NCBI GenBank assembly: GCA_017444825.1 | Contig: JAFSVU010000026.1 | Location: forward strand, 86,009 to 150,008 | Reading direction: 5' to 3' | DNA from: Clostridia bacterium | GTDB taxonomy: Bacteria > Bacillota > Clostridia > UBA1212 | Length of the DNA stretch: 64,000 bases | In this document: positions 1,902 through 41,025 of the stretch, in pieces | How positions within the stretch are numbered: position 1 is the stretch's first letter | Layout: every line of letters starts with the position of its first letter | Translations under genes and position numbers: made by a program | The notes under the pieces: generated by a model | Database searches by the model: none | The model's input: the letters and a program-made list of their open reading frames with translations, nothing else | Told to the model about the DNA's origin: nothing

Positions 1902-4424
1902 TCAAGTTTCAGCAGAAAGCGACTGCTTTTCCCGCTGTTTTTTCCCGGTCTTCCGGTTCTTTCTTCTCTGATCTTCGGTTTTCTTTTCCGGTTCGGCTAA
2001 AGAACCGCATTTGTAGTTGTCATCTCTGATAACCAAAGCATAGCCAAGGCTGTCAAGAAGCGACCAGGCTCCGTCAAGAAGAGTATAGTCGTATTTGATC
2101 ACGTCGGCTTCCGCCTCTTCCTCTGGTGTCACGTCGTTCATGTGTTTTGTGACATAATCCTTGAGATCTTTTTCATAGTCCTTGCTGTCCGAATTTGGAT
2201 ATAACTTGTCAAATCTTGAAACAAGAGCTTTGACCTTACGGAACGTGTATAAAGCATCGAACGTACACAGATTACCGTGATGCCTGAGAGCAAAATTCTT
2301 GCCAAAGGAATGTTCCTTTTTTTCATTAAGCTCGCACAGTATTGACTGTTCCGATGCCGGAACAAAGCCTTTTGTAATATGGAAAGCGTTCCACCTGGTA
2401 TGCTCCGTTTCCGCAAGATTACCTCTTTTTGATCCTTTTAAAAAGTCCGGGGAGAACTCAAGCATATATACACCACTTTCCATCTCCTTGAGATGAGGCA
2501 TATCATCTTTCCCGTAAATAGCATAATACTCATCAAAAGTCAGTTGATGCGCCTTGTCATAACTCTTTGGAACGATATTAAGTCCCATAAGATGCATTTT
2601 TAACCTTAGAGAAAGCACTGCGTATGTATTCGACAATCTCTGAAATTCATTCTGCCCGTACCATTTGGCATTAATGCCGTCATCGATCCGGAACTCTGAA
2701 ACACCTGTCTTAACGAAACCGTATTTATGTAACACGTAATTATGTATAGCGGCGTTGTTGTATTTCTCATTTGTGATCATTTTGTAGTTGAACTTGGTCT
2801 CACGGTCTACGCCGAAACAAAAGACTCTGTCCCGTAGAGTCGATGAAAAATAGATCTTCTTGTCAGAATATGCCTTATTCGAAGACGTCCTTGTAAAGAA
2901 ATACGTATTGGCGGATCTTTGGCGATCGTCGGAAACAGTCATAATAAGCTTATTTACGATATCAACGTTCGCAGAATCAGAACCCAAGGCAACGATCACA
3001 AAGTTAAGGTCCTTTTCATTGGCGCCAAGGCAGGATACTACGTTTTTGTAAAAATCACTGTCGTTAATGTCGCACTCTTTAAACTGTTCTGTGGCGGGAA
3101 GTTCCGGAACTTCCAGATAATCTCCCGAGTTTTTGACATACTTGCCGTCTTTATCAACGGAACGTTTGTTATATGCGCATATCCCGTCATGACATGATTC
3201 GGGATCCATATCAAGCCTGTATTCATTCTTATCTCCGATCCGATCGAAAAACTCACGTCTGTATCTGTAATACGTGTGATTAAGGTTTTTATGATCTACG
3301 GATTTGTTCTTGTCAAAGAAATAATAATTGACCTTCTTAAGCTTCTTCTCAGTCTTTCCGTCCTTCGATGTATACTCACTGAGAAACTGGTTAGTCGCGA
3401 CCATAGTCAGGAACATCTGCTGATTTGTCCTTCCGAAGCCTACAAACACGACGTTGATATTTACGTCGGGGCGGATCAGCGCTTTTTCAGTGTCGATATG
3501 CTCCTTTGTCATAAATTCGGTAAGAGGGTATTTCCCGCAAAAATCCATGGCCAGAAGTGTATATTCGTTCTTATAATGTAAAAAACCGTGCGATTCATTA
3601 ACAAAGGAAACGTATGTATTCTCAAACTCTCTGTCGCCAAGCACGTAAGCATCGAAGCGGTGGTCGGGCTTGTCCGGTCCCGTATAGTTATTATTGGCGA
3701 GTTCGTTCGCAAATGAAACTATGCGTCCGCACCAGAACATATTCAGTTCTTCGTCATTGGTGTTGATAATGATATTGATCTTTCCGGGTTTTCTGAAACG
3801 CCTGTACTGCATAAAAACGTATTTCTCAAGCCAGGCCTCCAGATGGTCATTGCTGCTGAACGAAAGAAAAGAGGCTCCTTTAAGAAACAGCTCATCGGCC
3901 TGCTCTTTTTTCATCACGTCAGCAATATATTTACGTTTTACGTCACACGTATTGTAGATCTCGAGATTCTCACTGTTGTTACCAATGATAACGACTTTTT
4001 CCTTGCGGGAGAATTTGAAGGACAGTCTAAAGCGGGCCATATCAATGCCCTGATGAAACAGAGAAATGACCAGTAACACCGCATTTATAAATACCAAAAC
4101 GTAGCAGAGATAAAGAGCGATTTTAAAAAATATGTTTGCGTCGATCAGGCCGAGATCGAAGGTGTATTTAAGGGCTATAAGACTTATGGACTCGGAAACG
4201 CCCTTCCAGAGGGCCTTGAAAAAAGAAAGCCCGTCATAGTAAAAACCAATGGTGAGAAGAGGAATCGCGACGAAATAAATAATGGTGCATTTACCGATCT
4301 TAAAACTTCTCAAATAAGCGCGTTTAGCCGATCTCCCCGGCTTTTTAAAAAAGCTAAACACCACCGCAAACACAAGGCAGACCATAAATACAATGCAGAG
4401 AATGGAAACAATTGTGTAAAGCAT
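1902..4424 (-). CDS. Hypothetical 840-aa integral membrane protein. It has 4 N-terminal TM helices, then a large Lys/Asn/Tyr/Asp-rich soluble region with two Rossmann/RCK(TrkA-N)-like beta-alpha starts (KVVIIGNNSENLEIY and NVVFVGFGRTNQQMFL) and a possible RyR-like motif (LAETEHTRWNAFHITKGF). It may be a CASTOR/POLLUX- or RCK-type channel-like protein
   Basis: Long ORF with an AGGAGG RBS 9 nt upstream of the ATG at 4424. Hydrophobic N-terminus MLYTIVSILCIVFMVCLVFAVVF... Strongly AT-rich codon usage, unlike the flanking groEL and valS. The function call is weak. Confidence 0.6.
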   Translation of the reverse strand: MLYTIVSILCIVFMVCLVFAVVFSFFKKPGRSAKRAYLRSFKIGKCTIIYFVAIPLLTIGFYYDGLSFFKALWKGVSESISLIALKYTFDLGLIDANIFFKIALYLCYVLVFINAVLLVISLFHQGIDMARFRLSFKFSRKEKVVIIGNNSENLEIYNTCDVKRKYIADVMKKEQADELFLKGASFLSFSSNDHLEAWLEKYVFMQYRRFRKPGKINIIINTNDEELNMFWCGRIVSFANELANNNYTGPDKPDHRFDAYVLGDREFENTYVSFVNESHGFLHYKNEYTLLAMDFCGKYPLTEFMTKEHIDTEKALIRPDVNINVVFVGFGRTNQQMFLTMVATNQFLSEYTSKDGKTEKKLKKVNYYFFDKNKSVDHKNLNHTYYRYRREFFDRIGDKNEYRLDMDPESCHDGICAYNKRSVDKDGKYVKNSGDYLEVPELPATEQFKECDINDSDFYKNVVSCLGANEKDLNFVIVALGSDSANVDIVNKLIMTVSDDRQRSANTYFFTRTSSNKAYSDKKIYFSSTLRDRVFCFGVDRETKFNYKMITNEKYNNAAIHNYVLHKYGFVKTGVSEFRIDDGINAKWYGQNEFQRLSNTYAVLSLRLKMHLMGLNIVPKSYDKAHQLTFDEYYAIYGKDDMPHLKEMESGVYMLEFSPDFLKGSKRGNLAETEHTRWNAFHITKGFVPASEQSILCELNEKKEHSFGKNFALRHHGNLCTFDALYTFRKVKALVSRFDKLYPNSDSKDYEKDLKDYVTKHMNDVTPEEEAEADVIKYDYTLLDGAWSLLDSLGYALVIRDDNYKCGSLAEPEKKTEDQRRKNRKTGKKQREKQSLSAET

Positions 4425-4524
4425 AAAGTCTGCCTCCTGTTTCGTACGGCAACAGGCCGGAAAAGAAAATCTTCCCGGCCTTCAGTCATAAATTTGTTAA
4501 GAAGTCAAATCTCAGAATGGCTTA

Positions 4525-6162
<1,638 letters not shown>

Positions 6163-6219
6163 TTATATAACCAATGCCGAAAGGGTCTTAAAAGCCCCTG
6201 CGCATGATCAAATTCTTAA

Positions 6220-6510
6220 TTAATCCTCGACAACTGCGAGAAGATCACTCTGTCTGATGATCATGAAGGTCTCGCCGTCAAGCTTAACTTCAGTGCCGGA
6301 ATACTTGCTCATCATAACTTTATCGCCGACTTTAACTTCCATCGGTATAAGCTTACCGTTATCGTCTCTTCCGCCCGGTCCAACTGCAACTACTACGGCA
6401 TAGTCCTGCTTTTCTTTAGCGCTGCCGGTGAGAATGACGCCGCCCTTGGATTTTGTCTCAAGGTCAAGCATTTTAATAACTATCTTATCACTTAAAGGTC
6501 TGATTTTCAT
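6220..6510 (-). CDS. groS: Co-chaperonin GroES (10 kDa)
   Basis: 96 aa, MKIRPLSDKIVIKMLDLETKSKGGVILTGSAKEKQDYAVVVAVGPG...; lies 69 nt upstream of groEL, the classic operon. Confidence 0.95.
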   Translation of the reverse strand: MKIRPLSDKIVIKMLDLETKSKGGVILTGSAKEKQDYAVVVAVGPGGRDDNGKLIPMEVKVGDKVMMSKYSGTEVKLDGETFMIIRQSDLLAVVED

Positions 6511-6566
6511 ATTGTCCTCCAGATTATTTCAGCCGCTGGTTACAGCCGTTGATTATGATTTTTGTT

Positions 6567-6593
6567 TTAGCACTCAAAAGGTTCAAGTGCTAA
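6567..6593 (-). promoter_or_regulatory. CIRCE element (HrcA operator) in the groES leader
   Basis: TTAGCACTC-aaaaggttc-AAGTGCTAA. This differs from the consensus TTAGCACTC-N9-GAGTGCTAA at one position and sits immediately downstream of the -10 on the transcribed strand. Confidence 0.8.
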
Positions 6594-6601
6594 CAGAGCA
6601 T

Positions 6602-6629
6602 ATTATACTACAAAAATATTGCTTTGCAA
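6602..6629 (-). promoter_or_regulatory. Putative sigma-A promoter of groES-groEL
   Basis: On the minus strand: TTGCAA (6629-6624), a 16-nt spacer, then TATAAT (6607-6602), just upstream of CIRCE. Confidence 0.5.
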
Positions 6630-6664
6630 CCCCTAAAACAAAGATTCTCGGGTTTAAGATAAAT

Positions 6665-9118
6665 TTAAAGTTTCTTAAGCTTTGTGTACTGCATCGCAAA
6701 CCGTTTCAAGCCAAACTTCTCAAAAGATATCTCACATATCCTGTCGTCCCGGTCAGCGGTCAATTCCCCCTCAATGGAGGTGACAAGGCCCTCACCGAAC
6801 TTGGGATGGGCTACGTGATCTCCGATCCTGATGTCCTTATCGCCGGCCTTCGCGCCAAGCCTTGCCTCTTCAAGCTTTACCGACGTTGTGTTAAGAGGCT
6901 TCCCGGCTGTAAAAACTTTCTTATTTATAGGCTTCTGATCATCGCCAAAGGGATCGTCATCAAAGGAAGGGAACAATGATGAAGACCTGTTATCCCCGCC
7001 GTTCTTTTTTCCGTATGAGCCGAATGAAGAATATCCGTTCCTGCCGTAGCCTCTGTATCCGTAGCCCTGATTTTCGGAATTTCCGTAAGTAAGATAATCG
7101 CCTTTGTCGCCATAGGAAACGTAGCCGGTATAACTTCTCCCTGTGGCGGCTCTTTCAGATATCTCTTCTCCCAGATAATTAACATACTTTGAATTCTCTT
7201 GGGGAATTCCGTCTAAGAACTCGGACTTGGGATTGAATTTTGTCTGGCCGTAGAGCATGCGTTCTTTCACATATGAAAGATAGAGCCTCTCTTTAGCTCT
7301 TGTTATCGCAACGTAGCAGAGCCTACGCTCCTCGTCAATATTGCCCTCGTCCATGGCCCTGATAGTCGGGAATATGCCCTCCTCCATGGCTACAACGAAC
7401 ACGACAGGGAACTCAAGTCCTTTGCTGCTGTGGATAGTCATAAGGGTGACTTTATCGGAATCGTCTTCTTCCTTCGCATCCATGTCTGTAGTGAGGGAAA
7501 TGTTCTGAAGGAATCCGGCAAGTGAATTCTCGAGAGTTGAGTCCTGCTCCGTGGCGGTAACGTAATCCTTGGCGACTGTGACAAACTCCATAAGGTTTCC
7601 GCAGCGGTCCTCATCCTTTTCTTTGTCGCTGGCCTCGTAAAAATATCTGAGCCCCATCTCCTCGTTTACAAGCTCCACAAACTCCGGAACGGAAAGGTCC
7701 GGAAGCTTTGAAGCCACATTTTCATAGCAGTCTGCAAAGTCTTTCAGCGAAACGGCGTATCTTGAAAGCTCGGGATAGTCCTTGACGTTTGCGGCCACTT
7801 CCACAGGCGTGATATGATTTCTGTTTGCGATCTGAATGATGGTCTCAACGCCCTTGTCGCCAATGGACCGCTTCGGGATGTTGATGATGGATGTGAAAGC
7901 ATTGGCGTCACCGGGGCTTTCAAACAGACGTAGATAATTGATGAGAACCTTGACCTCGGCCCGCTCAAAGAAGCGCATGCCGCCGTAGACTCTTAGCGGA
8001 AGCGCACGTCTCACAAATTCCGATTCGAGATACTGGGAAAGAGCATTCTGCCTGTAAAGGATAGCAATGTCCTCGTAACCGTATTTGCCGGAGGACACAA
8101 GCCTTGAGATCTCGCCCGCGATGAATCTGCTCTCGTCCAGCTGATTCTCACCGATGAACCTGGCGATCTTTTCACCGCCCTTTTTGGCTGTCCAGAGTTT
8201 CTTTTCCTTTCTGGATCCGTTGTTCTCCGAGATAACGCTGTTAGCAGCGTCAAGGATATTCTTGGTAGAGCGGTAGTTCTGCTCAAGCTTGATCACAGTG
8301 CAGTCGGGAAAATCCTTCTCAAAGCTTAATATATTGTTTATATCAGCTCCTCTGAAGCTGTAGATCGACTGGTCGTCGTCACCCACCACGCAAAGGTTTC
8401 CGTGAGGCGAAAGGAGTCTCACAAGAAGGTACTGGACCTTGTTTGTGTCCTGGTACTCGTCAACCATTATATATCTGTACCTGGTGGCGTAAAAATCGCA
8501 TACGTCGGGATGGTCCTTAAGAAGCTGTACCGCCTTCACAAGCATGTCATCGAAGTCAAGCGCATTGTTCTCAAACATTTTCTGATCGTAAAGCCTGTAT
8601 ACCTTAAGAAGGGTCCTGTCCTGAGGATTGTGAGGATTCAGCATCCTTGAATACTCATCCGGCGAAGTCATATTGTTCTTGAGCTTGGAAATGAGAGCCC
8701 TGTAAAGCCCCGGGTTCTCTTTCTTCGCGTCCATTTCCAGATCCTTGAAGCAGTCCTTAATGACCCTTTCTGTATCCTTCTCGTCATAGATGGCAAACGA
8801 AGAAGTATAACCAATGAGCTGCGCCCTGTCCCTTAGGATCTGACCGCAGAACCTGTGAAAGGTGCTGATAAAAGCGCCTCTTGACTCATCGCCAAGCATG
8901 CTCTCGACCCTTTCGCGCATCTCCCGCGCGGCCTTGTTGGTAAACGTTATAGCAAGGATATTGTACGGAGAAACACCGTACCGCTCAATGAGATAAGCGA
9001 TACGGTAGGTTATGACCCTGGTCTTTCCGCTGCCTGCGCCCGCAAGTATCAGCACCGGCCCGTCTTTTTGAGTCACAGCTTTATACTGTTCCGGATTTAG
9101 TTCCTGTTCGTAATTCAT
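6665..9118 (-). CDS. pcrA: ATP-dependent DNA helicase PcrA (UvrD family) with a Gly/Tyr/Ser-rich low-complexity linker before the C-terminal Tudor-like domain
   Basis: MNYEQELNPEQYKAVTQKDGPVLILAGAGSGKTRVITYRIAYLI... (helicase motif I), plus DEYQDTN and the other SF1 motifs. The ATG at 9118 lies 1 nt after the rlmB stop. The alternative ATG at 9160 adds 14 aa. Confidence 0.9.
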   Translation of the reverse strand: MNYEQELNPEQYKAVTQKDGPVLILAGAGSGKTRVITYRIAYLIERYGVSPYNILAITFTNKAAREMRERVESMLGDESRGAFISTFHRFCGQILRDRAQLIGYTSSFAIYDEKDTERVIKDCFKDLEMDAKKENPGLYRALISKLKNNMTSPDEYSRMLNPHNPQDRTLLKVYRLYDQKMFENNALDFDDMLVKAVQLLKDHPDVCDFYATRYRYIMVDEYQDTNKVQYLLVRLLSPHGNLCVVGDDDQSIYSFRGADINNILSFEKDFPDCTVIKLEQNYRSTKNILDAANSVISENNGSRKEKKLWTAKKGGEKIARFIGENQLDESRFIAGEISRLVSSGKYGYEDIAILYRQNALSQYLESEFVRRALPLRVYGGMRFFERAEVKVLINYLRLFESPGDANAFTSIINIPKRSIGDKGVETIIQIANRNHITPVEVAANVKDYPELSRYAVSLKDFADCYENVASKLPDLSVPEFVELVNEEMGLRYFYEASDKEKDEDRCGNLMEFVTVAKDYVTATEQDSTLENSLAGFLQNISLTTDMDAKEEDDSDKVTLMTIHSSKGLEFPVVFVVAMEEGIFPTIRAMDEGNIDEERRLCYVAITRAKERLYLSYVKERMLYGQTKFNPKSEFLDGIPQENSKYVNYLGEEISERAATGRSYTGYVSYGDKGDYLTYGNSENQGYGYRGYGRNGYSSFGSYGKKNGGDNRSSSLFPSFDDDPFGDDQKPINKKVFTAGKPLNTTSVKLEEARLGAKAGDKDIRIGDHVAHPKFGEGLVTSIEGELTADRDDRICEISFEKFGLKRFAMQYTKLKKL

Positions 9119-11547: not shown

Positions 11548-13470
11548 TCAGGCCCTGTGGAATCTCCTCTCGATCTCATATTGAGTCATTTTAAATATGA
11601 TAGGTCTGCCGTGTGGGCAAGTGCCGGGATTTTTCACAGCAAGTAAAGAGTCGAGAAGATGTCTTATTTCAATATCAGAAAGCTTCATATTGCCTTTAAT
11701 GGCGGCTTTGCAGGCCATCGTATAGACTGCATGATCCGGGAACACGTTGATCATCCCTTCTCCGGTCCTCGGACTGCCTATGGCGGTGACCACAAAAGCC
11801 TCCGCGGAAGACTCGTCAATAAGCGTGGGAACGGATCTTATGATAACGGTGTCAGAGCCGAATTCATCGATCTCGAAACCAAGCTTCTCAAAAGCGTCCT
11901 TTATCTCTCTGAACCTTATCATCTCTGACGGTCCGAGCCTCACGGTAATGGGAAGCAGAAGTGGAGTCGACGGATTGTCGGCACCGAGAAGCCTTGCTTT
12001 GATCTCCTCATATTTAAGACGCTCGTGGGCCGCGTGCTGATCTATCATGTAAAAAGCGCCGTTAAACTCCAAGAGAATGTAGGTCTCAAGAAGCTGCCCT
12101 ATAACACGTCCGTATTTATAAACGTCGTAAAACTCACCGGAAAACTCCGGGTCTTTCTTTTCAGGCACCTTCGTCGCCCGCTCATCTTCGCTTGCGGTAA
12201 CGACTTTTCCGCCCTTCATACCGACGTCAATGCCCTCAAACAAAGCCTGTTCACGCACGCCAAGGGGCTCTACGTCCTTCTTCTGGGCGTATGCATCAGG
12301 GACGGGTTCGGATACGGCCCCGGCTTTTATGATCTCGGAAAACGAAGGAACAGAGAATGGCTCATACTTCTTTGGCATTTCTGAACTCTTCGGCTGTTCA
12401 GTGGATTTCAGGGTTTCGGTGGCTTTTGGTGCTTCCTGTATCTTTGGCGATTCGTTTGATAAAGCAAACTCCGGCGGAGCGATGGCGGGATCGTACACGG
12501 CTCCCATTATCGCATGGTAGACACAGCGGAAGACCGCATTGTTGTCGGCAAACCTGACCTCTGTCTTGGCGGGATGGACGTTTACGTCGACTCTTGACGG
12601 CGGAACCTCGATATTCAAAACAGCAAACGGGAAACGGCCCTTCATGGTAAGGGTCTTGTAAGCCTCATCAATAGCGGCGGACACAGTTTTGCTTTTAACG
12701 TAACGGCCGTTGACGAATGCCAGCTGTCTGTTCCTGTTGCCGTATGTGAGTTCTTTGAGACCGCACAGGCCCGTGACCTTTACATTGTCTTCTGAAAATG
12801 CGCAATCCGTTAGTTTTTCGGATATCTCCCTGCCGAAAATACCATAAACGGCAGACCTGAGATCGCCTCCCGGAGTAAAGAGAATCTGTTTTTTGTCTGA
12901 GATAAGTCTGAATGAAACAGCCGGGTGCGAAATTGCAATTCTCTCCATGGTCTCCGCCACGTAAGACGCCTCGGTCTGATCTCTCATCAGAAATTTATAC
13001 CTTGCCGGGGTGTTGTAGAAGAGATTCTCAACGATAAAGCTTGTACCGTCCTTTGTACCGCAGGGGCCTGACTCAATAAGCTCTCCACCCTCAATAACGA
13101 CGCAGGTGCCCTGATCGTTGTCCCTCGTTTTGGTCCTGAGAGTCACCTTGGAAACGGCAGATATACTTGCAAGCGCCTCCCCTCTGAAACCGAGAGTATT
13201 TATCTCGAACAGGTCCTCGGAGGAACGAATTTTACTGGTGGCATGCTTGTCAAACGCGATGATGCAGTCATCAGGCTCCATGCCGGAGCCGTTGTCGTCG
13301 ATCCTTATGTATTTAATACCGCCGTTTCTGATCTCGACGGATATCCTTGTACTTCCGGCATCGATGGAGTTTTCAACCATCTCTTTTACGACGGAAGCAG
13401 GTCTTTCAACGACCTCGCCAGCCGCTATCTGGCTGGATGTCAGATCGTCAAGTAGAATGATCTTTCCCAT
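11548..13470 (-). CDS. mutL: DNA mismatch repair protein MutL
   Basis: GHKL ATPase N-terminus: IAAGEVVERPASVVKEMVENSIDAGST...IRIDDNGSGM...GFRGEALASI. 640 aa. Confidence 0.92.
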   Translation of the reverse strand: MGKIILLDDLTSSQIAAGEVVERPASVVKEMVENSIDAGSTRISVEIRNGGIKYIRIDDNGSGMEPDDCIIAFDKHATSKIRSSEDLFEINTLGFRGEALASISAVSKVTLRTKTRDNDQGTCVVIEGGELIESGPCGTKDGTSFIVENLFYNTPARYKFLMRDQTEASYVAETMERIAISHPAVSFRLISDKKQILFTPGGDLRSAVYGIFGREISEKLTDCAFSEDNVKVTGLCGLKELTYGNRNRQLAFVNGRYVKSKTVSAAIDEAYKTLTMKGRFPFAVLNIEVPPSRVDVNVHPAKTEVRFADNNAVFRCVYHAIMGAVYDPAIAPPEFALSNESPKIQEAPKATETLKSTEQPKSSEMPKKYEPFSVPSFSEIIKAGAVSEPVPDAYAQKKDVEPLGVREQALFEGIDVGMKGGKVVTASEDERATKVPEKKDPEFSGEFYDVYKYGRVIGQLLETYILLEFNGAFYMIDQHAAHERLKYEEIKARLLGADNPSTPLLLPITVRLGPSEMIRFREIKDAFEKLGFEIDEFGSDTVIIRSVPTLIDESSAEAFVVTAIGSPRTGEGMINVFPDHAVYTMACKAAIKGNMKLSDIEIRHLLDSLLAVKNPGTCPHGRPIIFKMTQYEIERRFHRA

Positions 13471-13486
13471 AGTTTTAACTTACTTC

Positions 13487-15010
13487 CTATAATTGTTTAC
13501 CTGATTTTTTAGAATTGTGAGCAACAAGCGCGATCGCTAGTATCATAAGCGGAACAACAAACACCAATATTATCACCGCACAAACCAGTACCTTATGTTC
13601 GCTTGAAAACGCGATAGTCCTGTCAACTCCCTCGGAAAAAGCATATTTATTGACGTACCCGGAGGACGCACCGGGGGAAGAAATTTCCATTGGTTTTGAC
13701 GTGGCTTCTTCAGGGATCAGTACGTCAAGGGCATCAAAGAGTTTATCACCGCCAGAGTAACGCTGGAGTGAATTATCGACGATATCAAGGATATAAAGCT
13801 GTTTCGCGCCGCCGTTTTTGGAACCGTAAACGAGGAACTGAGTATCCTTGCCCCTGTAGGCTCTGATACCTGTTATAAACAGTGTCTCAATGGTCTCTCC
13901 CGCCGGCGTATAAACGAAAGTGGTAGCTTTCTCAAATCTCTTTTCCGGGTATACCCTGGCAAGGTATTTATCTACGTCATAGAACGTAAAAGTGTTGCCT
14001 GCGATATTGTCGTATTCCATAACGAAAAGGTCTCCGTCGCCGTCAAGTCCCGGTGTGGGTGTGGGAGCAGTAGTATCTTCCGGAGCTACCGATGGGGTGA
14101 CCGTCGGAGTTTCAGTCGGCTTTTCAGTTATTTCAGGCGTGATAGCAGGAGATTCGGAAGGATTTTCGGAAGCGTCCGGAGTTTCAGAAGCATCAGGCGT
14201 CGGCGTCGGAGTAGGCGTCGGAGAAGGTGTGGGAGTCGGGGTGGGAGTCACCGGATCCGGTGCTTTTGCCCTTATGACGTTAACAGAATAAACTTTTTCA
14301 TTACCGTTTTCCGCAGTGACCGTAATGGTCCTCACGTTGTTCCCTACCTTAAGGAACTCGGTTCCCGAGAGAGCGCTCTTTGCCGAGCTGTCCTCAAGTC
14401 CGAAATACATGTAGCAGACGTCAACGTTATTGGCGACGTTTACCGTATATGTCAGGGTCTCCTTATTGAATTTGGGATTAAGAGTGCCTACCGAAGGCTC
14501 GATAAATTTCAGATAGCAGTTGGATGATTTTTCTTTGTTTGATATTCCAAGTGTGGCATTGGTTATAGCGACGTCCATTATGTCGTCCTTGCCCTGCTCG
14601 GGAATGAGCCTTAAGGCCATGTGGTCGGTGATGGTAAAGTTACAGGTTCCGACCGCTTTGCTCTTGAACGTGTATTGGCGTGTGAATGATCTTGAATTCT
14701 GACCCTGGGAAAAGTCCACCTGCTCGCTGATGATGCCCGCCGCCTGGGAGACGTTGTCGCCGGAAATGAATGTGACCTTTGAATTATCATATTCAAATTT
14801 GAAGGAAACGTAGGCGGAATCAACGCTGCTCGTATATGTTAGCGTGAGCTTGAATTCGGTGTTTTCCCTTACTTCATTGGTGCTGAGTGTGAGCTTAAGA
14901 CTTGCATCCGAGGCAGCCGAAACGTTGCTCACGAAAAAGCAGCCCGCGATCATAACGACCGCAAGAAAGGCGCAAAATGCGATATGAATTTTAGAATAAG
15001 ATCTCTTCAT
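13487..15010 (-). CDS. Secreted cell-surface protein: signal peptide, cadherin-like beta-sandwich domains, a PT-rich linker, and a C-terminal TM anchor with a basic tail
   Basis: Signal MKRSYSKIHIAFCAFLAVVMIAGCFFVSNVSAAS. Cadherin-like beta-sandwich motif CYLKFIEPSVGTLNPKFNKETLTYTVNV. Linker [21 protein letters not shown]-terminus VLVCAVIILVFVVPLMILAIALVAHNSKKSGKQL. Confidence 0.7.
   Translation of the reverse strand: MKRSYSKIHIAFCAFLAVVMIAGCFFVSNVSAASDASLKLTLSTNEVRENTEFKLTLTYTSSVDSAYVSFKFEYDNSKVTFISGDNVSQAAGIISEQVDFSQGQNSRSFTRQYTFKSKAVGTCNFTITDHMALRLIPEQGKDDIMDVAITNATLGISNKEKSSNCYLKFIEPSVGTLNPKFNKETLTYTVNVANNVDVCYMYFGLEDSSAKSALSGTEFLKVGNNVRTITVTAENGNEKVYSVNVIRAKAPDPVTPTPTPTPSPTPTPTPTPDASETPDASENPSESPAITPEITEKPTETPTVTPSVAPEDTTAPTPTPGLDGDGDLFVMEYDNIAGNTFTFYDVDKYLARVYPEKRFEKATTFVYTPAGETIETLFITGIRAYRGKDTQFLVYGSKNGGAKQLYILDIVDNSLQRYSGGDKLFDALDVLIPEEATSKPMEISSPGASSGYVNKYAFSEGVDRTIAFSSEHKVLVCAVIILVFVVPLMILAIALVAHNSKKSGKQL
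14080..14285. repeat. Proline/threonine-rich linker coding repeat, (CCN-ACN)n, within the surface protein gene
   Basis: DNA shows ggcgtcggagtaggcgtcggagaagg... periodicity, matching the PTPTPTP stretch in the translation. Confidence 0.7.
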
Positions 15011-15037
15011 AGTTTTACCCTCATAAGTGCAGAATGG

Positions 15038-17401
15038 TTAATTTGGCTGCACCAGTTTTGCGATATCCCAAACGTGTCTCTTGATGTAGAGGAAGTCAAG
15101 AGGCGTCACAGAATTGACGGCAGCAATATTTTTAGTCGAAACGGCTCCCGCCACCAGCCAGATGTCGGCAAGCTCCGATATGCCCCAGACATGGCGTTTT
15201 ACGTAAAGAAAATCAAGTGCATTGATCACTCCGTCACCGGTAACATCGCCAAAGAGTACCACCTTGAACGTGGCAAGTGTGTCACCTGTTATAACGGACT
15301 TTACTGTCACAACTGAACCTGTGGATATGATGCTGTCGCCTGTTATCACCTGGCCGTTTTTATTTTTGACCTCTACGGAGGTGTTGGTCAGTTCGAACTT
15401 TGAAAGGAATTCGGAGACCTTCATGTTTTCCGATATTCCATAGACGATATTTCCGGAAGAAGCAGTGCCGGATGTAGGGAGAGATACACTGTACTCTACA
15501 ACAGGCGTTGGAGTGGGAGTGGGTGTGGGTGGGGGTGTGGGCGTCACGTTAACTGTCGGTGTCGGCGTCGGCGTGGGAGTTGGCGTCGGGGTCGGAGTAG
15601 GTGTGGGTGTGGGTGTCGGCGTCGGCGTTGGTGTCGGCGTCGGGGTCGGCGTTGGTGTCGGCAGCGGCGGATCGAACTCCTCTTCGCTTCTCAAAATGGT
15701 TATGGTATAAAGACCTGCGTCTCCCCGCTGAGATTTGGTTACGATCTCAAATACGTTCTCGCCAATGTAAAGCGTCTTCTCTCCGAGACCGCTTACGGAT
15801 GTGTTTGAATTGATGGGCTCGGCTGTAAGGTTGACCTTACTGATGCTCTTCGGGAGTCTCAAGGTGTAGCTGAAAACACCGGATTCAAAAGTCGGGCTGA
15901 TGATATAATCGCCGACCTTGATGCTTTTAAGTCTGTAATTGGGGTTTCCGTCCTTTGTGGGACACGGGCAGGAAAGCTCCGGAATATCGAGGTATACCGG
16001 GATCTTAAACAAAAACGAGGATTCGAACAGCCCTGCGGATTCGTACGTATTCTTTACGTTCATACTCTCCGAGGTGGCGGCCTCAATGTTCTGCATGTAT
16101 TGGTGCCAGAATCTGCTGAAATATTCGCCCTCCACGTCAAATTTCTGAAGGTAGAAGGTGTCCTGACCCTTGGTTATGTAGTTCATGCCAACTTTTTTGC
16201 TTCCGCCGGCAAGGGCAAGATAAGGAGTGGTCCAGCCCTCGCGTCTTGCCTCCGCAAAACCGTTTGCGTATATCTGAGCATTGGTGGAGCCCGCGGCCTC
16301 TATGTTGAAATAGTTGTACAGGCCTTCATATCCCGGCTCAACACCTGATATCAGCGGACTCTTACCGAGTCCCTGTTCCTGTCTAACCCTTGCGGCCAGC
16401 ATGAGCGGATTCACATTATTAAGCTCACCGAGTCTCATAAAAGCCTGAGCATAGGTGATGTCTCTACCGTCCTCGTCGCCCATAGGCACGTTGGCGTGGG
16501 ACATAAAAGTACCGCTGAGAAGCTTTTCGACGCTCGCCTCGGTAACCACGTCAGGGTTGTATGAAAGCTGTTCAAACTGGAATATATGCTTCTCGTTGAG
16601 GAAGTTCCTGGGATCAAGGAAATAGTCGATAAGTTCATACGAAGCGCATGTAAAATAAGGACCCGAAACACCGACCCAGGCATCCTTGTCCCAGTCGAAG
16701 GCCCCCGGCCTCAAAGATTTCCATGAGGATATGGCAGTGACTTCGATGTCGTTTGAGTTGAATTCATATTCAGCGGCAAGGACAGTCTGCCAGCTGAGGT
16801 CCGTCTGAAAAGCCTTAAACCTCCATTCAGGATGGAGGTAATGAAGGACTCTGAGATAAAGTCTGTATGACTCGGGAAAGCCCTCCTCATCCATGAGAGC
16901 CTCAAATTCGGGATCGCTCGAAGGCGCAACCAAACCAATGTATTGAGCCGAAACATAGCCGTATTTTCTGGCAGAGCCATTGGCGTAACTGACGTAATAC
17001 CAGGCGCTGTCGCTTACAAAAACCCTGCCGTGGATCTCAATGACCGTTCCGTATTTAAGTGAGTCGAGTATAGTCGATTCTGTGGAGGGACCCTCTCTGA
17101 CTCTGAGTGAGCTGTCGGTATAGACGTCCACGTATCCGCAAAGTGTCCTGCTGAAGAGCTGAAGCTCGCCTTCTTCTCCGGGAGGTATGCTGCCGGGATC
17201 GTGGGGTCCCGGAGTTTCGGTGGGTACAGGGGTCTCAGTTTCCGAAGGAACGGGAGTATCGGTTGCAGTAGGTGACTGATCCGGGTCCTCTCCGTGGACT
17301 GTCAGTCCTCCCGAAATAAAAGAAAAGAACATAACGACAGCAAGAAGTACGCAAAACAGCTTCGTAAGCCTTATGTGCTTTTCCTGCAAAGTCATGTTCA
17401 T
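15038..17401 (-). CDS. Dockerin-containing multidomain peptidoglycan hydrolase: signal/TM, SH3b, glucosaminidase (mannosyl-glycoprotein endo-beta-N-acetylglucosaminidase-like), cadherin-like beta-sandwich, (PT)n linker, type-I dockerin
   Basis: SH3b: [36 protein letters not shown]. Glucosaminidase-like region: [14 protein letters not shown]. Cadherin-like: [29 protein letters not shown]. About 20 consecutive PT dipeptides. C-terminal duplicated dockerin calcium-binding loops [21 protein letters not shown] and [16 protein letters not shown]. Confidence 0.75.
15505..15690. repeat. (PT)n coding microsatellite: about 30 tandem ACN-CCN dipeptide codons
   Basis: ggcgtcggcgtgggagttggcgtcggggtcggagtaggtgtgggtgtgggtgtcggc... 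On the antisense strand it reads as a spurious (GV)n ORF (15465..15710 +). Confidence 0.8.
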
Positions 17402-17523
17402 CGGAATTTTTCTCCTTTGTAACGCACCATTTTAAAATAAACGATACAAGTTTATTATACAGCTTTTCCCCGAGAAATTCAAGGAATCATTTTTACTGCA
17501 AAAATAGCGGCATTATGGGCTCG

Positions 17524-18360
17524 TCAATAATAGTCGACCCTTCTGTTGTTCTCAAACACCGGGGGATATATATTCTCCGAAGGATCGATGCCCGCAAGTC
17601 TGCAGCAGGCCTCGTGGGCCCTTTTCGTAAGATCGATAACCGCCTCATGTCTCGGAAGACTCTTATCGGGAAACAGTGGCTCGCCAATGTTAAACGTGAT
17701 CATCCCTTCCCGGTATATCAGCTTAAACAGTCCCTTAGGCTCACGGTAGGAAAAAGCGCACGGAAGGATCGGGACGTCAGCCTTGACGGCGAAATTTGCG
17801 GCGCCGGTCTTAAAAGGTCTTATAGGCATGTAATATTCCCACATACTGCCTTCCGCTGCGATATGGAGCCAGCCCCCATCCTTAATATATCCCAGAACAG
17901 TGTTTGACATGGCGGCCTGAGCTTTGATGTCTCCCACCGGCACAGGGATGCCGCCGTTATATCTTATAAGCTTTTTATTCTCGCCCATCATGTTTTTGTC
18001 CCATACGAGGATACGGGTCTTCCGCCTCCAAAAGGAAAGCATTTCAACTATATAATCCCAAAGATGTATATGGTTTGCAACGGAAATAACGCCTTTTGAG
18101 AGCTCACCTTTATGCTTTTTAAGATTATCTTTCCCCTTTACCTTAAGTCCGAGAGCAATGTAGGTGATCGGCCTTGCCACGGTCTGGACAAGCACCCTCA
18201 TCAGTGCAGCCTTAAATCTGTATGATCTCGAATCATCTATGAACGGGTAGTCTTTGTCAAACACAGCCCCGTCATTTTTCTTGACGACAAGGTAATGTCT
18301 GTCGGTTATATCAGGAAAAGGGTATTTTGTAGGCTTGGGATCATATGGCATAACGATCAT
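17524..18360 (-). CDS. plsC: 1-acyl-sn-glycerol-3-phosphate acyltransferase family protein (PlsC/LPLAT)
   Basis: HX4D acyltransferase motif in ISVANHIHLWDYIV, and a ...PIRPFKTGAA... block. The start is placed at the internal Met (MIVMPYDPK) because the longer ORF (to 18450) would overlap the upstream gene by 80 nt. Confidence 0.65.
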   Translation of the reverse strand: MIVMPYDPKPTKYPFPDITDRHYLVVKKNDGAVFDKDYPFIDDSRSYRFKAALMRVLVQTVARPITYIALGLKVKGKDNLKKHKGELSKGVISVANHIHLWDYIVEMLSFWRRKTRILVWDKNMMGENKKLIRYNGGIPVPVGDIKAQAAMSNTVLGYIKDGGWLHIAAEGSMWEYYMPIRPFKTGAANFAVKADVPILPCAFSYREPKGLFKLIYREGMITFNIGEPLFPDKSLPRHEAVIDLTKRAHEACCRLAGIDPSENIYPPVFENNRRVDYY

Positions 18361-34297: not shown

Positions 34298-36196
34298 TCA
34301 CCACTTATAATCGGTGTCTTTCCAGTTGAGCTCCTCGGGAGCCTCCACCACGTGCACTACCATTGTGACTACCGTATTGTCGGGACCGATGGTTGCGGTG
34401 ATGGTGGCGTCGCCAATGCCCTTGGCGGCTATCATGCCGTCCTTGCTCACAACTGCGATATTCGTATCGCTGGAAGTATACGTAACAGGGTATTTCTCCG
34501 CGGGAACCATAGCAGGATAGTCCTTATGGGACTCGGTCTTATCGTTATAGCACTCGCCCCAGGTGTCATTGCTGAATTTCACAAGAGCTCTTATCTGGAA
34601 CTTGTGAGTAGCACCGTTGGTCTTACCCTTGTATATCGTAAGCTTCGGTTCCACAGCCTCGGCCGAAACGATCTTCGGGCTGCTGTCACTGTAATTGAAG
34701 TCGGCGGCATAGACGTAGACCTTAAACACTATCTGGAAGCCTTCATACGTGGCCTTGACGGTGGTCTTGCCCTCTTTCAGCGCAGTGATCTTGATACCGT
34801 CAAACTTAATGAGAGACGTGTCGTAATCACTGAACGTGATATTGGCAATGTCGTCGTCCTTGATCTCGTGGCGGCTGATATTGGCGTCTATCCAGTATAC
34901 TCTGAAAGATTCATTAACGTCGCCGATGTGCATCTTAACAAGATGGTCGATGGTCGTGATACCTTCCGGGACGGGATCAGTTTCAGCCGGCCAGAAGCCG
35001 TCCGTAATTAGCACGTTTTTGTCGCTCTTGGGCGTTGAGTGGACCTTCTCGTCCTGGTACGTGGTTATGGTTACGAAATTGAATCTGGTAGCCCATTTTC
35101 CCCAGTTATCGTCACGCCCATCGCAGAAAGCGTAACCAAGCATCAACGTATCCTTGAGCTGGATGTGGCCGTTGGTCCTCTTCGAAATACCCATGTTGTG
35201 GCAGAACTGGGCAATGTTCTTCTTTATAAGCTCACCTTTGATGAAATGGATGCCGTCCTTGGACTCCCAGATCTGTACGCCGCTCTGTGCGGAGAACCTG
35301 TTCATGGTCTGAACTCCCATGAAAAGTCCCGCATCTTCCACGTATACAACGTCAAGCTGATCTCCGCCGGAGCTGGTAAAAGCTCTGCCGTGAAACTTCA
35401 TGGTGGCCGGCCAGTTGGGATCTGTGGCGTCCGCGGTCGCAACGTATTTGTAATCACCCGTGTCGCATGCCCAGGTGTAATAAATATAAAGCGTACCGTC
35501 AAGAACCACGAAGCTGGGCTCGCCTGCGCCCCACTTGTCGTCGGACTCATTGTAATAAACTATCGGCATGGGATCTCCGCCCCAGCCGCTGCCGTTCCAT
35601 TTGTCAAAAGGACCGTCGGGCTTTCTGGATCTGGCAACAAAAACGTTGTTATTGATACCTCCGTTGGTGGAAACTATGGTGGAAGTGTAACCGATGTAAT
35701 AATATCCGCCAAAGTAGATAACGCCGGGGTCACAGACCGAATAATGGTCGTATGAATCGGGTGTGGGCTGGAGAACGAGTTTCTCTTTGGACCAGGTCTT
35801 TCCTCCGTCGTCGGAATGCTTGTATGTGAACCAGTCCCACTCACCGGAAGTTCCGGGTGTGGCAAACCATGCATCCATGGTTCCGTCGGGATAATACATT
35901 ATGCTGGGTCCGTATCTGTAGCCCCATTTTCCTTCAACAGGGGCAAATACGTTAAAGCCCGTGCCTTCCGCATCAATGTGGAAGTGGGTGTTCTCAGCCG
36001 GTGTCACTCTCGGAAGTTCATCCTGAAACTCCCTGGGATCGGGTCCCTCGGGTGTAGGCTCTTCTGTGGGCTGTTCTGTAGGATTATTATTCATAGGATC
36101 GCCTCCCTTATCAGTGTTGCAGGCGGCAAAGCATCCGGCCGCCAGAACCAATATCAGAACCAACGATATCAGTCTCAATATATTACGCATTTTCAA
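34298..36196 (-). CDS. Lipoprotein with a beta-propeller glycoside-hydrolase-like domain (GH43/GH32/BNR fold) and C-terminal Ig-like (Big_2) domains
   Basis: Lipobox LVLAAGCFAAC. W/Y/G/D-rich propeller-like repeats (WDWFTYKHSDDGGKTW; GAGEPSFVVLDGTLYIYYTW). C-terminal beta-sandwich segments TALKEGKTTVKAT and KGIGDATITATIG. Confidence 0.55.
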   Translation of the reverse strand: MKMRNILRLISLVLILVLAAGCFAACNTDKGGDPMNNNPTEQPTEEPTPEGPDPREFQDELPRVTPAENTHFHIDAEGTGFNVFAPVEGKWGYRYGPSIMYYPDGTMDAWFATPGTSGEWDWFTYKHSDDGGKTWSKEKLVLQPTPDSYDHYSVCDPGVIYFGGYYYIGYTSTIVSTNGGINNNVFVARSRKPDGPFDKWNGSGWGGDPMPIVYYNESDDKWGAGEPSFVVLDGTLYIYYTWACDTGDYKYVATADATDPNWPATMKFHGRAFTSSGGDQLDVVYVEDAGLFMGVQTMNRFSAQSGVQIWESKDGIHFIKGELIKKNIAQFCHNMGISKRTNGHIQLKDTLMLGYAFCDGRDDNWGKWATRFNFVTITTYQDEKVHSTPKSDKNVLITDGFWPAETDPVPEGITTIDHLVKMHIGDVNESFRVYWIDANISRHEIKDDDIANITFSDYDTSLIKFDGIKITALKEGKTTVKATYEGFQIVFKVYVYAADFNYSDSSPKIVSAEAVEPKLTIYKGKTNGATHKFQIRALVKFSNDTWGECYNDKTESHKDYPAMVPAEKYPVTYTSSDTNIAVVSKDGMIAAKGIGDATITATIGPDNTVVTMVVHVVEAPEELNWKDTDYKW

Positions 36197-37267: not shown

Positions 37268-40200
37268 TTATTCGGTCCTCAGTGCTTTCACCGGATCCTT
37301 GACGGAGGCGATGATCGACGGGAAAAGTCCCGCAACGAACGTAAGCAGCATGCTGATGCAGACAAGCACGGCTGATGCCGCCCACGGGATGACCGCATTG
37401 ATGGTATTTATCCCTGTGAAGAAATGTACTATTGCGTTAATTGGGATACAAAGCAGGTAGGACAATCCTATGCCTATAAGGCCCGACGCAAAGCCTATGA
37501 TCAGGGTCTCGGCAGTGAACACGGTGGAGACATCCTTTTTGGACGCGCCAATGGAACGCAGTATGCCGATCTCCTTGGTTCTTTCCAGAACCGATACGTA
37601 AGTGATGATGCCGATCATGATCGACGATACAAACAGCGAAACGGCGACAAAAGCTATAAGCACGTATGAGATTGCATTGATTATGGTGGTAATACCCGAC
37701 ATCAGTATAGCCACGTAGTCTGTGTAATAGATCTTGTCCTCATCGTCATCCTTGGTGTCGTTGTACTGCTCGATTATTTCGGCGATCTTCTCCTTGTTTT
37801 CAAAGGTGTCCGGATAAATGCCAATGGTCTTCGGCGAAGAGAGATTGAGGACGCCAAGCATATCCAAATTGTCCTTGTAGCTGTTTGGCGAGACCTTGTT
37901 TTCGGTTATGACATTGTAAGCTCTTATAGCCTCTTCGTCGGTCGCATTGGTTACGTATTCGTCAAAGGCGGCGGCAAGCTTTTTGTTTGCTCTGTCGCGG
38001 TCCTGGCCGGCATTTTCGGAATACATTGCGAGCGCCGACTGTTCCAGCGTCCTGTCGTAGACCGTCTCAAGAGCTTCAGGAGAGAGACTCATCAGGTACA
38101 TATACGCCTCTTCCGTACTCATAACGCCAAGCCGGTTCCAGTACATGGCAATGAAGCCCACCTGTTTCTCGACAGTATCTATCTGGGAGGATAAGTAAAG
38201 CTTGATAAGGATAAGTTCTTCCTCGGAGGGCGTCTCGATTATCTCATCGATCTTAGCTTCTGCCTCTTTTGCGAAATTCTCTTTTATAGTCTTCTCCGCA
38301 GTCTCTCTGATCAGCTTAAACAGTTCTTCGTCAGAATATGCGCTTAGGTACTGCTTTATGGCATCCGCCTGTGCCCCGTAAGCCTCGGCAATAAGGGTCT
38401 CCATCTGTTCCCTGGTATCAGCAGAGAGGAACACCTCAAGCTTCTGATTAATGTAATCATCATCCGGAGTCGAAATTATCTTCCTGATTGCTTCCGCTTT
38501 TTCGGCATCCGAAAGAGTGTCCTTAAGGTTTATGAACCCGTTGATCCTGTCCCGGTCGGTTATGCCGGAAATGTCGATGTAGTAAGGCAGGCCGTTAAAT
38601 ATATCGACATTCTCGTTTTCAGATTCAAGAAGACGCTTTACGGAGGCGGATTCATTGGTTTTTGAGATCACGTATTCCGTAAGGAGGTTCGTGTAGCAGA
38701 ACGTAGTGTTTGCGGTAATGGCAGTGGACGTGACGTCAGGATTCGCCCGGATAACTCCGCATATATGAAGAGAAAGACTGTTTCCGGCAATCAGCTGCAG
38801 AAGCGCGTTGTCCTCCTCCGCATTGGAGAAAAGTCCGTCTCCGTCGGGATCCGTATAAAGATCTGACTTAAGAACAAGCTTCATGTCGATCTTGTCAAGG
38901 TCCGCAAAGCTCACTTTGTGTTCTTTGAACTCTACCTCTTTGCCTGACATGGCAGTGGCGATTGCAAGGGAAAGGTCCTCACGGCTCATAATGCCGAGAG
39001 TATAAAAACCCATATCGGGGATCTCATTGTTTTTGTCGACGAGAAGAAGCACGTCCTCTTTGCTGCTGGGCCACTCGCCCCAGATGAGATCATACTGGTC
39101 CTTGATCAGGTCGGATATGGGACTGCCGTCTTTCCCGGGGATAAGTTCGTCCCAGAGCGACATGGAAAATGACGAAGATGACATGGCGGAGCTCATGAAA
39201 CTTATACCCTCTCCAACTCCGGAACCGTTAAGTATACCCATAACGGAGGTACCTCTGTATTCTTCCGACTCGCTGTCCCTGACATAAGTGTTAACGTCAA
39301 TGCCGTAGCCATAATGGATGGTGGTCACAAGACTTCTGATATCCGTTTCGGGATCATCGGAGGTCATTTCCTTGTCGAGCCACTTTTTAAATTCAGTCAG
39401 GTTGTTGGACTTGGAGGAATCCGCGAAAAAGGCATTGAACATGTCATAGGCGCGGGAATTAGAGTAAGCGGTATTCTCCTCTTTCTGTTCCTTTGCTCTC
39501 TCCTCCTGTTTATCCTTTGTTGATCCCAGGGCCGAGGAAAGATCCCGGTGTTCCTCTTCAAGGCTGATCGGATAAGATGACAAAGTCTCTCTCTGCACGT
39601 CATCGATATAGTTCTGAACGCCTGTGGATATCGCCAGTATGAGCGCAATGCCGATGATACCGATACTTCCGGCAAAAGCGGTAATAAACGTCCTGCCCTT
39701 TTTCGTCATTATGTTGTTAAACGAAAGTGAAAGCGCTGTGAAGAAAGACATTGAGGTCTTCTTTTTGCGTCCTTTTGACACTTTAGAATGCTTTTCCCCT
39801 CCGTCCCCCGGAGCTTCATTTACACTGTTATCGAGACGTTCAGGGATACCTCTTCCGGTGTATTCAAATTCCGAATAATCCACATTGACGTCATCTTCCG
39901 TTTGAGCGGCTGGAGCGACATAAGCGGGCTCTGACGAAGGCTCGGAAACCGGAAGCACAAGAGACTCTTTTCCTTTTTTTCTAAGTTTCTCAAACTTTGC
40001 AAGTGCTTTGGCTTCAAAGGATATATCCTCTGTGGAAAGGATGTCAGAAGGAACGTCGTTTCCGGCAGCAGGTTCAGATACAGGCTGTATGTCGGCAGTT
40101 ACATCGGTTTCGGGTAATTTTTCACTTTCGACCGGTGCATAGTCTTCTTCGATCCTGACAGGCCCCTCTTTGGACTCGTTTGCGCCGTCGGATACAACCA

Positions 40201-40849: not shown

Positions 40850-41025
40850 TAATATGAACCTCCGTCCAAAATCCAAAGGATTTTAAAGCTTTATTATTGA
40901 AAAAAAATGAAAATTACCCGAATAAAGGGGAAGATCGATTCAGGGGACTTAATTCAAAATGAGCCGTCTGTCACGGATCGGTTCAGGGACAGACAGCTCA
41001 TCTCAAGCTTAAGTATCAAACGATA

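Follow-up and report, generated by a model that had tools for sequence, protein, structure and literature searches.

Why does a peptidoglycan hydrolase carry a dockerin, and to what would that dockerin hold it? The question is raised by a gene in a 64,000-nucleotide (nt) stretch of contig JAFSVU010000026.1 from the metagenome-assembled genome of an uncultured Clostridia bacterium (assembly GCA_017444825.1, NCBI proteins MBQ7445287-MBQ7445300), positions 86,009 to 150,008, hereafter the window. An earlier interpretation made from the letters of this stretch (the sequence-only reading) had described the product as a glucosaminidase combined with a cell-wall-binding SH3b domain, a cadherin-like domain, a (PT)n linker and a duplicated type-I dockerin, and had framed it in terms of the cellulosome. 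What it overlooked is a potential partner, as the next gene downstream encodes a cohesin protein. Judging from sequence comparison and structure prediction, we think it probable that the two genes form a dedicated, non-cellulosomal cohesin-dockerin cassette, which would hold an autolysin on the membrane of the cell that produces it.

The hydrolase gene (gene 1) was verified as an open reading frame (ORF) of 787 amino acids (aa) at 15038..17401 (-), with exactly the boundaries given earlier; positions here and below are those of the window, and all features of the two genes lie on its reverse strand. An exact database look-up of the 787-aa protein gave no identical record, and a near-identical copy carries P624T. 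Based on Pfam, structure-homology matches and the translation, the product can be read as a secreted protein with the order SH3b-GH73-cadherin-like-(PT)n-Ig-like-dockerin. A putative signal peptide (residues 1-37 approximately; 17291..17401), with a probable cleavage site between LTVHG and EDP, was read from the translation, as was the Pro-, Thr- and Glu-rich spacer of residues 38-82 that directly follows it. The SH3b domain (Pfam SH3_3, residues 97-155; 16937..17113) is found at an E-value of 3.7e-10, and the hydrolase family profile also matches the C. perfringens SH3_3 structures 2kt8 and 2krs. Downstream of the catalytic region, a cadherin-like beta-sandwich (PF12733, residues 503-571; 15689..15895) scores 26.5 bits against a cut-off of 24.2 (E 8.9e-6), and with this both accessory domains are present as first proposed.

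For the GH73-type N-acetylglucosaminidase region itself (residues 160-475 approximately; 15977..16924), the Pfam Glucosaminidase model PF01832 gave no match on isolated residues 158-475 even at E 10, and it is also missing from the precomputed Pfam lists of the hydrolase homologs. Homology to solved GH73 enzymes carries the assignment: a single-sequence search found AtlE (4pi7) at E 2e-10, together with SagB, Atl and Acp, and a family profile of 33 sequences reached SagB at 1.3e-24, Atl at 6e-23, AtlE at 1e-22 and Acp at 3e-16. In the alignment to AtlE, the catalytic glutamate of this enzyme pairs with E342 of the hydrolase (codon 16376-16378), and 4pi8, an otherwise identical entry, has an alanine there. 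E342 is invariant across the 33 aligned homologs, and so is the QYM motif at residues 434-436. The glucosaminidase claim is thereby borne out, although the Pfam model does not see it. Since PF01832 misses both the window region and its homologs despite this structure homology, the sequences place the region in a divergent GH73 subfamily. Against NF052642, the SagB family model (‘peptidoglycan release complex glucosaminidase’), the hydrolase scores 36.8 bits and stays below the cut-off of 425, which on the level of sequence indicates that the GH73 core alone is shared with the SagB-type peptidoglycan release complex. From the homology we infer that the GlcNAc-beta-1,4-MurNAc bond (between N-acetylglucosamine and N-acetylmuramic acid) is the one cleaved.

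The type-I dockerin occupies residues 716-787 (15041..15256) at the very end of the protein and has two repeats. When the whole protein is searched, Pfam reports only the first repeat, through the first half of the Dockerin_1 model. When the C-terminal 155 aa are scanned alone, Dockerin_1 (PF00404) matches in two stretches with 43.5 bits (cut-off 22.9, E 3.8e-11), which accounts for both repeats. Residues 633-787 were modelled by AlphaFold with a predicted local distance difference test (pLDDT) of 95.9 and a predicted template-modelling score (pTM) of 0.89, and the model consists of an Ig-like sandwich and then three helices (construct residues 96-106, 114-120 and 135-145). Its best PDB matches in Foldseek are dockerins, among them 8x39 with a root-mean-square deviation of 1.7 Å over 70 columns and 4uyp_B with a template-modelling (TM) score of 0.72. 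The proposal of a dockerin on a peptidoglycan hydrolase is therefore upheld by the Pfam matches of both repeats and by the predicted fold. When 40 C-termini are aligned, the family shows a canonical two-repeat dockerin and, just ahead of it, a beta module some 80 residues long that is also conserved, and the two recognition helices, which are nearly identical to each other, are strongly conserved. The preceding module (residues 637-715 approximately; 15257..15493), delineated by family conservation and by the AlphaFold model, is Ig-like and resembles an X module by its position. X-module-dockerin dyads match the model weakly (4iu2_B and 4wkz_A, probability 0.38); the high pTM suggests that in the predicted structure it is packed against the dockerin in the manner of an X module.

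Gene 2 (13487..15010) starts 27 nt past the stop codon of gene 1, has a ribosome-binding site of its own (GAAGGA), and encodes 507 aa that comprise a signal peptide, a cohesin, a cadherin-like domain, a Pro-, Thr- and Glu-rich linker, a juxtamembrane domain, a transmembrane helix and a basic tail. No terminator-like site was found in our scan of the 27-nt intergenic gap, and the two genes are probably co-transcribed. They also share a reading frame, with TAA and nine sense codons (PFCTYEGKT) lying between them (15011-15040, -), which is probably due to chance.

The assignment of its N-terminal domain (residues 35-160 approximately; 14531..14908) as a cohesin follows from three independent tests that agree with each other. 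Firstly, homologous neighbours exceed the cut-off of 24.1 bits of the Pfam cohesin model PF00963 (34.2 bits for that of locus L004, 33.2 for P0132, 29.4 for P0138 and 25.8 for P0161), and P0138 serves as an intermediate sequence, since its cohesin is 33% identical to the window domain over 97 aa (E 7e-8). Secondly, a 19-sequence profile of the N-terminal domain matches cohesins in the PDB, including ScaB (3l8q, 1.1e-8), NagJ (2w1n, 1.4e-6) and many others. Thirdly, an AlphaFold model, the pLDDT of which over residues 31-160 is mostly 76-92 and drops to 68-73 at residues 81-110, was compared by Foldseek: the 18 top-ranked PDB matches are all cohesins at a probability of 1.00, as are most of the top 50, and single-module cohesin chains reach TM scores of about 0.55-0.70, those among the best-ranked matches 0.64-0.70. 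By homology and predicted fold, we thus take this domain to be a cohesin.

The remainder of the partner protein resembles a stalk. A cadherin-like beta-sandwich at residues 178-247 (14270..14479) scores 19.7 bits, which is below the Pfam cut-off, the orthologous neighbours being well above it. It is followed by a linker of some 75 residues rich in Pro, Thr, Glu and Ser (residues 249-322; 14045..14266), predicted to be disordered with pLDDT values below 50. The juxtamembrane domain (residues 325-420 approximately; 13751..14038) is folded, and it has no Pfam family and no sequence relative in the PDB. Its motif PxGY...AW...FYLxYAxNxxGExGxYxYDxxExTxQRY is conserved in 48 of the 59 cohesin proteins of the fetched loci described below, nearly all of them adjacent to a GH73 gene. 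Finally, a transmembrane helix lies at about residues 474-497 (13520..13591), within a predicted helix of residues 473-502 and with a mean Kyte-Doolittle hydropathy of 3.34 in the best 19-residue window, ahead of the tail HNSKKSGKQL. Because a signal peptide at the N-terminus is combined with a transmembrane helix at the C-terminus, the partner is predicted to be a type-I membrane protein, with the cohesin carried well away from the membrane. A lipoprotein anchor was also considered for the lipobox-like motif IAGC within the signal peptide (residues 21-24; 14939-14950, -) and was rejected, as this motif is not conserved in homologs. VIAC in P0122 resembles it, and the other homologs have no Cys there. 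As the lipobox Cys is not conserved, cleavage at a type-I signal peptidase site between VSA and AS seems more likely.

So how would these two proteins act together? In the cassette as we envisage it, the product of gene 1 would be secreted through the Sec pathway and bind the wall through its N-terminal SH3b domain and its catalytic domain, and its dockerin would plug into the cohesin of the partner, presumably in a Ca2+-dependent manner. This cohesin would top a long stalk, made of the cadherin-like domain, the Pro- and Thr-rich linker of about 75 residues and the juxtamembrane domain, over a single transmembrane helix, and as such the hydrolase would be leashed to the outer face of the producer’s own membrane. 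Two flexible proline-rich linkers, of about 60 residues in the hydrolase and about 75 in the partner, could then provide reach across the wall and bring both the catalytic and the SH3b domain into the peptidoglycan. Retained in this way, neither diffusing away nor sitting on a cellulosome, the autolysin would be limited in the places it cuts, and it may serve in daughter-cell separation, wall turnover or the trimming of glycan strands. We infer the physical binding and this role from the domain content and the arrangement of the genes: because a cohesin and a dockerin are encoded by adjacent genes, direct docking is the simplest account, and the window holds one cohesin and one dockerin in total. 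Two other roles that were considered, a flagellar one like that of FlgJ and a sporulation-specific one, have no support in the gene neighbourhoods examined.

A scan of one genome per species gave at least 581 stretches encoding relatives of the hydrolase, and the best-matching 80 loci were fetched and scanned with hidden Markov models (HMMs) that we built for four modules (GH73, Ig-like, dockerin, cohesin). Database relatives of the hydrolase number more than 1,350, most of them with the same Pfam architecture, and the 80 loci derive from Lachnospiraceae (Roseburia, Agathobacter, Lachnospira eligens, Faecalimonas, Butyrivibrio), Oscillospiraceae or Ruminococcaceae, and Acutalibacteraceae. A cohesin gene on the same strand lies immediately downstream in 50 of the 57 dockerin-bearing homologs, as opposed to 8 of the 21 that lack a dockerin, and every locus that has both the Ig-like module and the dockerin, and sufficient downstream sequence, has one. 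Of the 58 adjacent cohesin proteins, 57 have a transmembrane-like segment C-terminal to the cohesin. Close relatives keep the gene pair beside mutL (L001, L002, L003 and L006), and it is also kept in unrelated contexts (L005, and L004 from a Tyzzerella-like metagenome-assembled genome (MAG)). In L025, a cohesin gene is located 3.7 kb upstream on the opposite strand.

We must however take into account a number of observations that weigh against the tether as described. The Pfam model PF00963 does not match the cohesin of the window partner itself. The dockerin of the window clade departs from the canonical pattern of Ca ligands, that is D or N at loop positions 1, 3, 5, 9 and 12. Its repeat 1 follows this pattern save for a Thr at position 3, and the loop of repeat 2 is 4-5 residues longer and degenerate, with only the final Asp clearly kept, while most homologs are canonical in both repeats. 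As such, the description of a duplicated type-I dockerin stands with regard to the two repeats that match Pfam, but not with regard to canonical Ca binding in the second, and because this loop is both degenerate and lengthened, the window dockerin may differ from canonical dockerins in affinity or binding mode. The Fisher p-value for the co-occurrence of dockerin and cohesin gene (3e-5) is nominal, since the loci are phylogenetically related. Furthermore, a mirror-tree comparison of dockerin and cohesin distances gave r = 0.50, reduced to a partial r of 0.115 when controlling for GH73 distances (permutation p 0.023), so that co-evolution of the two modules beyond their shared phylogeny appears weak at the sequence level. 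The single cohesin was counted in the 64-kb window, and another partner could be encoded elsewhere in the genome. The main caveat, however, comes from loci that lack a dockerin altogether. Seven MAGs of a related lineage (L026, L049, L059, L069, L073, L078 and L086) encode a GH73 protein of about 900 aa that has several SH3b domains at its N-terminus and in which no dockerin is detectable, next to the same cohesin, cadherin-like and transmembrane neighbour; L026, with the GH73 gene at 3205-5979 and the neighbour at 6092-7333, is an example. In an eighth dockerin-less locus, L063, the GH73 ORF has just 441 aa and the neighbour is likewise kept. Because these loci retain the cohesin-transmembrane neighbour, their sequences indicate that linkage of the two genes does not strictly depend on the dockerin.

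These loci give some room to a different partnership, in which the neighbour acts with the hydrolase by a route other than the dockerin. For instance, one or other of its domains (cohesin-like, cadherin-like or juxtamembrane) would regulate, activate or inhibit the GH73 domain, comparable to SpdC with SagB, and the dockerin would be an accessory or bind something else. Beside the seven multi-SH3b genes, the presence of a cadherin-like domain in both proteins, the strong conservation of the juxtamembrane domain and the weak co-evolution signal are all in line with such an arrangement. We nevertheless consider it unlikely. The cohesin neighbour accompanies all loci that combine Ig-like module and dockerin, the family strongly conserves the two helices of the dockerin, and a cohesin gene adjacent to a dockerin gene most simply means that the products dock onto each other.

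The idea that the dockerin places the hydrolase in a multi-enzyme scaffoldin, for the lysis of competitors or for wall remodelling at the scaffoldin anchor, is the cellulosome framing of the sequence-only reading. The hydrolase does bear a type-I dockerin, its C-terminus being recognised by the dockerin HMM, and a cohesin does exist in the genome, so that neither of the two observations named beforehand as a refutation of the sequence-only reading was made. The cohesin is however not part of a scaffoldin: it is a single one, and it forms the membrane-distal tip of an anchored protein whose gene begins 27 nt further downstream. Throughout the 64 kb of the window there is no scaffoldin, no carbohydrate-binding module (CBM), no dockerin-bearing carbohydrate-active enzyme (CAZyme) and no other cohesin or dockerin; the surrounding genes are housekeeping ones (mutL, miaA, groEL, dnaE, addB, aspS, and genes for phosphoglucomutase, an ABC/FtsX protein and a GH2-like protein). 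Moreover, Roseburia, Agathobacter, Lachnospira and Faecalimonas, genera in which the cassette is common and widely spread, are not known as producers of cellulosomes. In favour of display on a scaffoldin are seven homologs from Ruminococcus or Oscillospiraceae (L012, L018, L024, L027, L030, L036 and L079), which are about 620-670 aa long and have a canonical dockerin right after the cadherin-like domain, and lack both the Ig-like module and a cohesin gene beside them. These seven could dock elsewhere, in which case no adjacent cohesin gene would be expected. In addition, one table in PMC4081043, the layout of which has dockerin columns, lists GH73 among the glycoside hydrolase (GH) families unique to R. 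albus. For the window hydrolase, we regard scaffoldin display as improbable. Still harder to believe is that the dockerin is vestigial, or a purely structural Ca-binding module without a partner that lies next to a cohesin gene incidentally: the degenerate second loop of the window clade, and the statement in PMC4081043 that many genomes have dockerins without detected cohesins, would fit this, but the two genes have stayed together in two orders of Clostridia and in more than one genomic setting, the two helices are near-identical to each other and conserved in homologs, and the dockerin is modelled with high confidence (pLDDT 95.9).

For a tethered autolysin, the linker between the cadherin-like domain and the Ig-like module would be of consequence for its reach. 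It spans residues 576-636 (15494..15676) as (PT)18 + VNVT + PTPP + (PT)4, where (PT)18 corresponds to residues 581-616 and (PT)4 to residues 625-632; the ‘(PT)20’ noted before was roughly right in length, but the actual repeat is (PT)18 with a separate (PT)4. The underlying DNA is an imperfect hexanucleotide repeat, found by Tandem Repeats Finder as a hexamer array at 15513-15669 with 73-78% matches. Because synonymous codons are mixed, it lacks long perfect runs, the longest being 17 nt with period 6 and 5 nt with period 2, and to call it a long hypermutable dinucleotide-codon microsatellite was an overstatement. The expectation that its length varies between strains did hold. Compared to strain L006, which has 98% protein identity and 65 substitutions over an alignment of 3,909 nt, there are just two indels, of 6 nt and 12 nt. 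Both are in the linker, at its two longest perfect sub-repeats. A contig of the same population from another sample (L087:2070-5984) differs at 2 positions in 3,915 nt over both genes, again both in the linker, leading to the P624T mentioned above. This concentration of differences could reflect a mutational hot spot, or errors of short-read assembly in repeats. Near-identical contigs were found in metagenome samples labelled XIEF21-1, and the same series gave a contig identical to a locus of a goat-colon MAG.

With regard to expression, a ribosome-binding site (AAAGGAG) lies 10 nt ahead of the hydrolase ATG, and the 122-nt gap upstream of the gene contains a promoter-like site, TTGAAT-17 nt-TATAAT (17454..17482, -), by consensus match only. 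Promoter- and terminator-like sites are no more numerous in this region than in shuffled sequence, and an Rfam scan of 13300-17900 for riboswitches or leaders gave no match. Elsewhere in the window, the ORF of 840 aa beside groEL (1902-4424, -) has no Pfam match at E 1e-5, and its ortholog in L088 is likewise without a listed Pfam family. A 632-aa protein (34298-36196, -) has a C-terminal Big_2 domain as its sole domain match, and a 1,202-aa protein (37268-40876, -) is a fusion of an ABC ATPase and an FtsX-like permease.

How Gram-positive bacteria control their own wall hydrolases in space is a central question, which has mostly been worked out in Bacillus, staphylococci and streptococci. The cassette suggests that many abundant gut Clostridia use a cohesin-dockerin plug and socket for the control of an autolysin, and it provides ‘orphan’ dockerins and cohesins of non-cellulolytic bacteria with a function that can be tested. 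It also calls for caution, in that a dockerin in a metagenome is not automatically evidence of a cellulosome. One may go further and speculate, though we would put little weight on it, that the cassette is a widespread system dedicated to autolysin positioning in Lachnospirales and Oscillospirales, in which the partner does more than leash the enzyme passively: its juxtamembrane domain couples or gates the glucosaminidase to wall synthesis or division, the joint is Ca2+-dependent, and the length of the linker acts as a ruler across the wall. Under this speculative reading, it could also rank with the natural roles of cohesin-dockerin pairs that are most widely distributed, distinct from polysaccharide degradation. 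As cultured carriers exist, such as Lachnospira eligens (L083) and Bovifimicola ammoniilytica (L082), experiments are feasible.

The kind of locus to which this one belongs has been noticed before. According to a single sentence in Ze et al. 2015 (PMC4611034), citing Wegmann et al. 2014, R. bicirculans has a GH73-associated single cohesin and single dockerin, and as far as this one-sentence description goes, it is the same kind of pairing as in the window. In the literature searched, there was no study of this cassette, whether functional, structural or comparative, no functional study of a GH73 enzyme with a dockerin, and no functional data on the R. bicirculans pair. How widely the cassette occurs, its anchoring by a transmembrane helix, the presence of an Ig-like module ahead of the dockerin and the conserved domain of the partner all appear to be undescribed there. 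Among characterised wall hydrolases, Acp of C. perfringens and the staphylococcal AtlE, Atl-GL and SagB resemble the window hydrolase in their GH73 core and general-acid glutamate, and Acp-type enzymes, the catalytic domain of which (5wqw) was matched, likewise combine SH3_3 modules with GH73. None of these has a dockerin-cohesin pair, and the window hydrolase differs from them by an extra N-terminal extension of about 150 residues and is missed by PF01832. SagB of staphylococci is likewise membrane-bound, and it acts together with SpdC, a protein of the membrane. Here the anchor is SagB’s own transmembrane helix, whereas the window hydrolase would be anchored through its proposed cohesin partner, and functionally the tether would be comparable to SagB-SpdC or to the surface-bound Acp of C. 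perfringens.

The use of one cohesin on a cell-bound protein to capture a dockerin enzyme is also known from OlpA and OlpC of C. thermocellum and from ScaE with X-Doc of R. flavefaciens, and the proposed cassette would follow the same principle. The cohesins of OlpC and OlpA are among the structural matches of the window partner (4dh2 and 3ul4), and X-Doc dyads have a module directly before the dockerin as the window hydrolase does, even though its Ig-like module matches X modules weakly. OlpA, OlpC and ScaE are attached through S-layer homology (SLH) domains or by sortase and serve the degradation of plant polysaccharides, in contrast to the window partner with its C-terminal transmembrane helix. 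Also comparable are the GH toxins NagH and NagJ of C. perfringens, which like the proposed cassette use cohesin-dockerin pairs outside of cellulosomes. The NagJ cohesin (2w1n and 2jh2) is the best structural match, and one of the top profile matches, of the cohesin in the window partner. The pairs of NagH and NagJ, however, link secreted enzymes together, and not, as we propose for this locus, a wall hydrolase to the membrane anchor of its own cassette.

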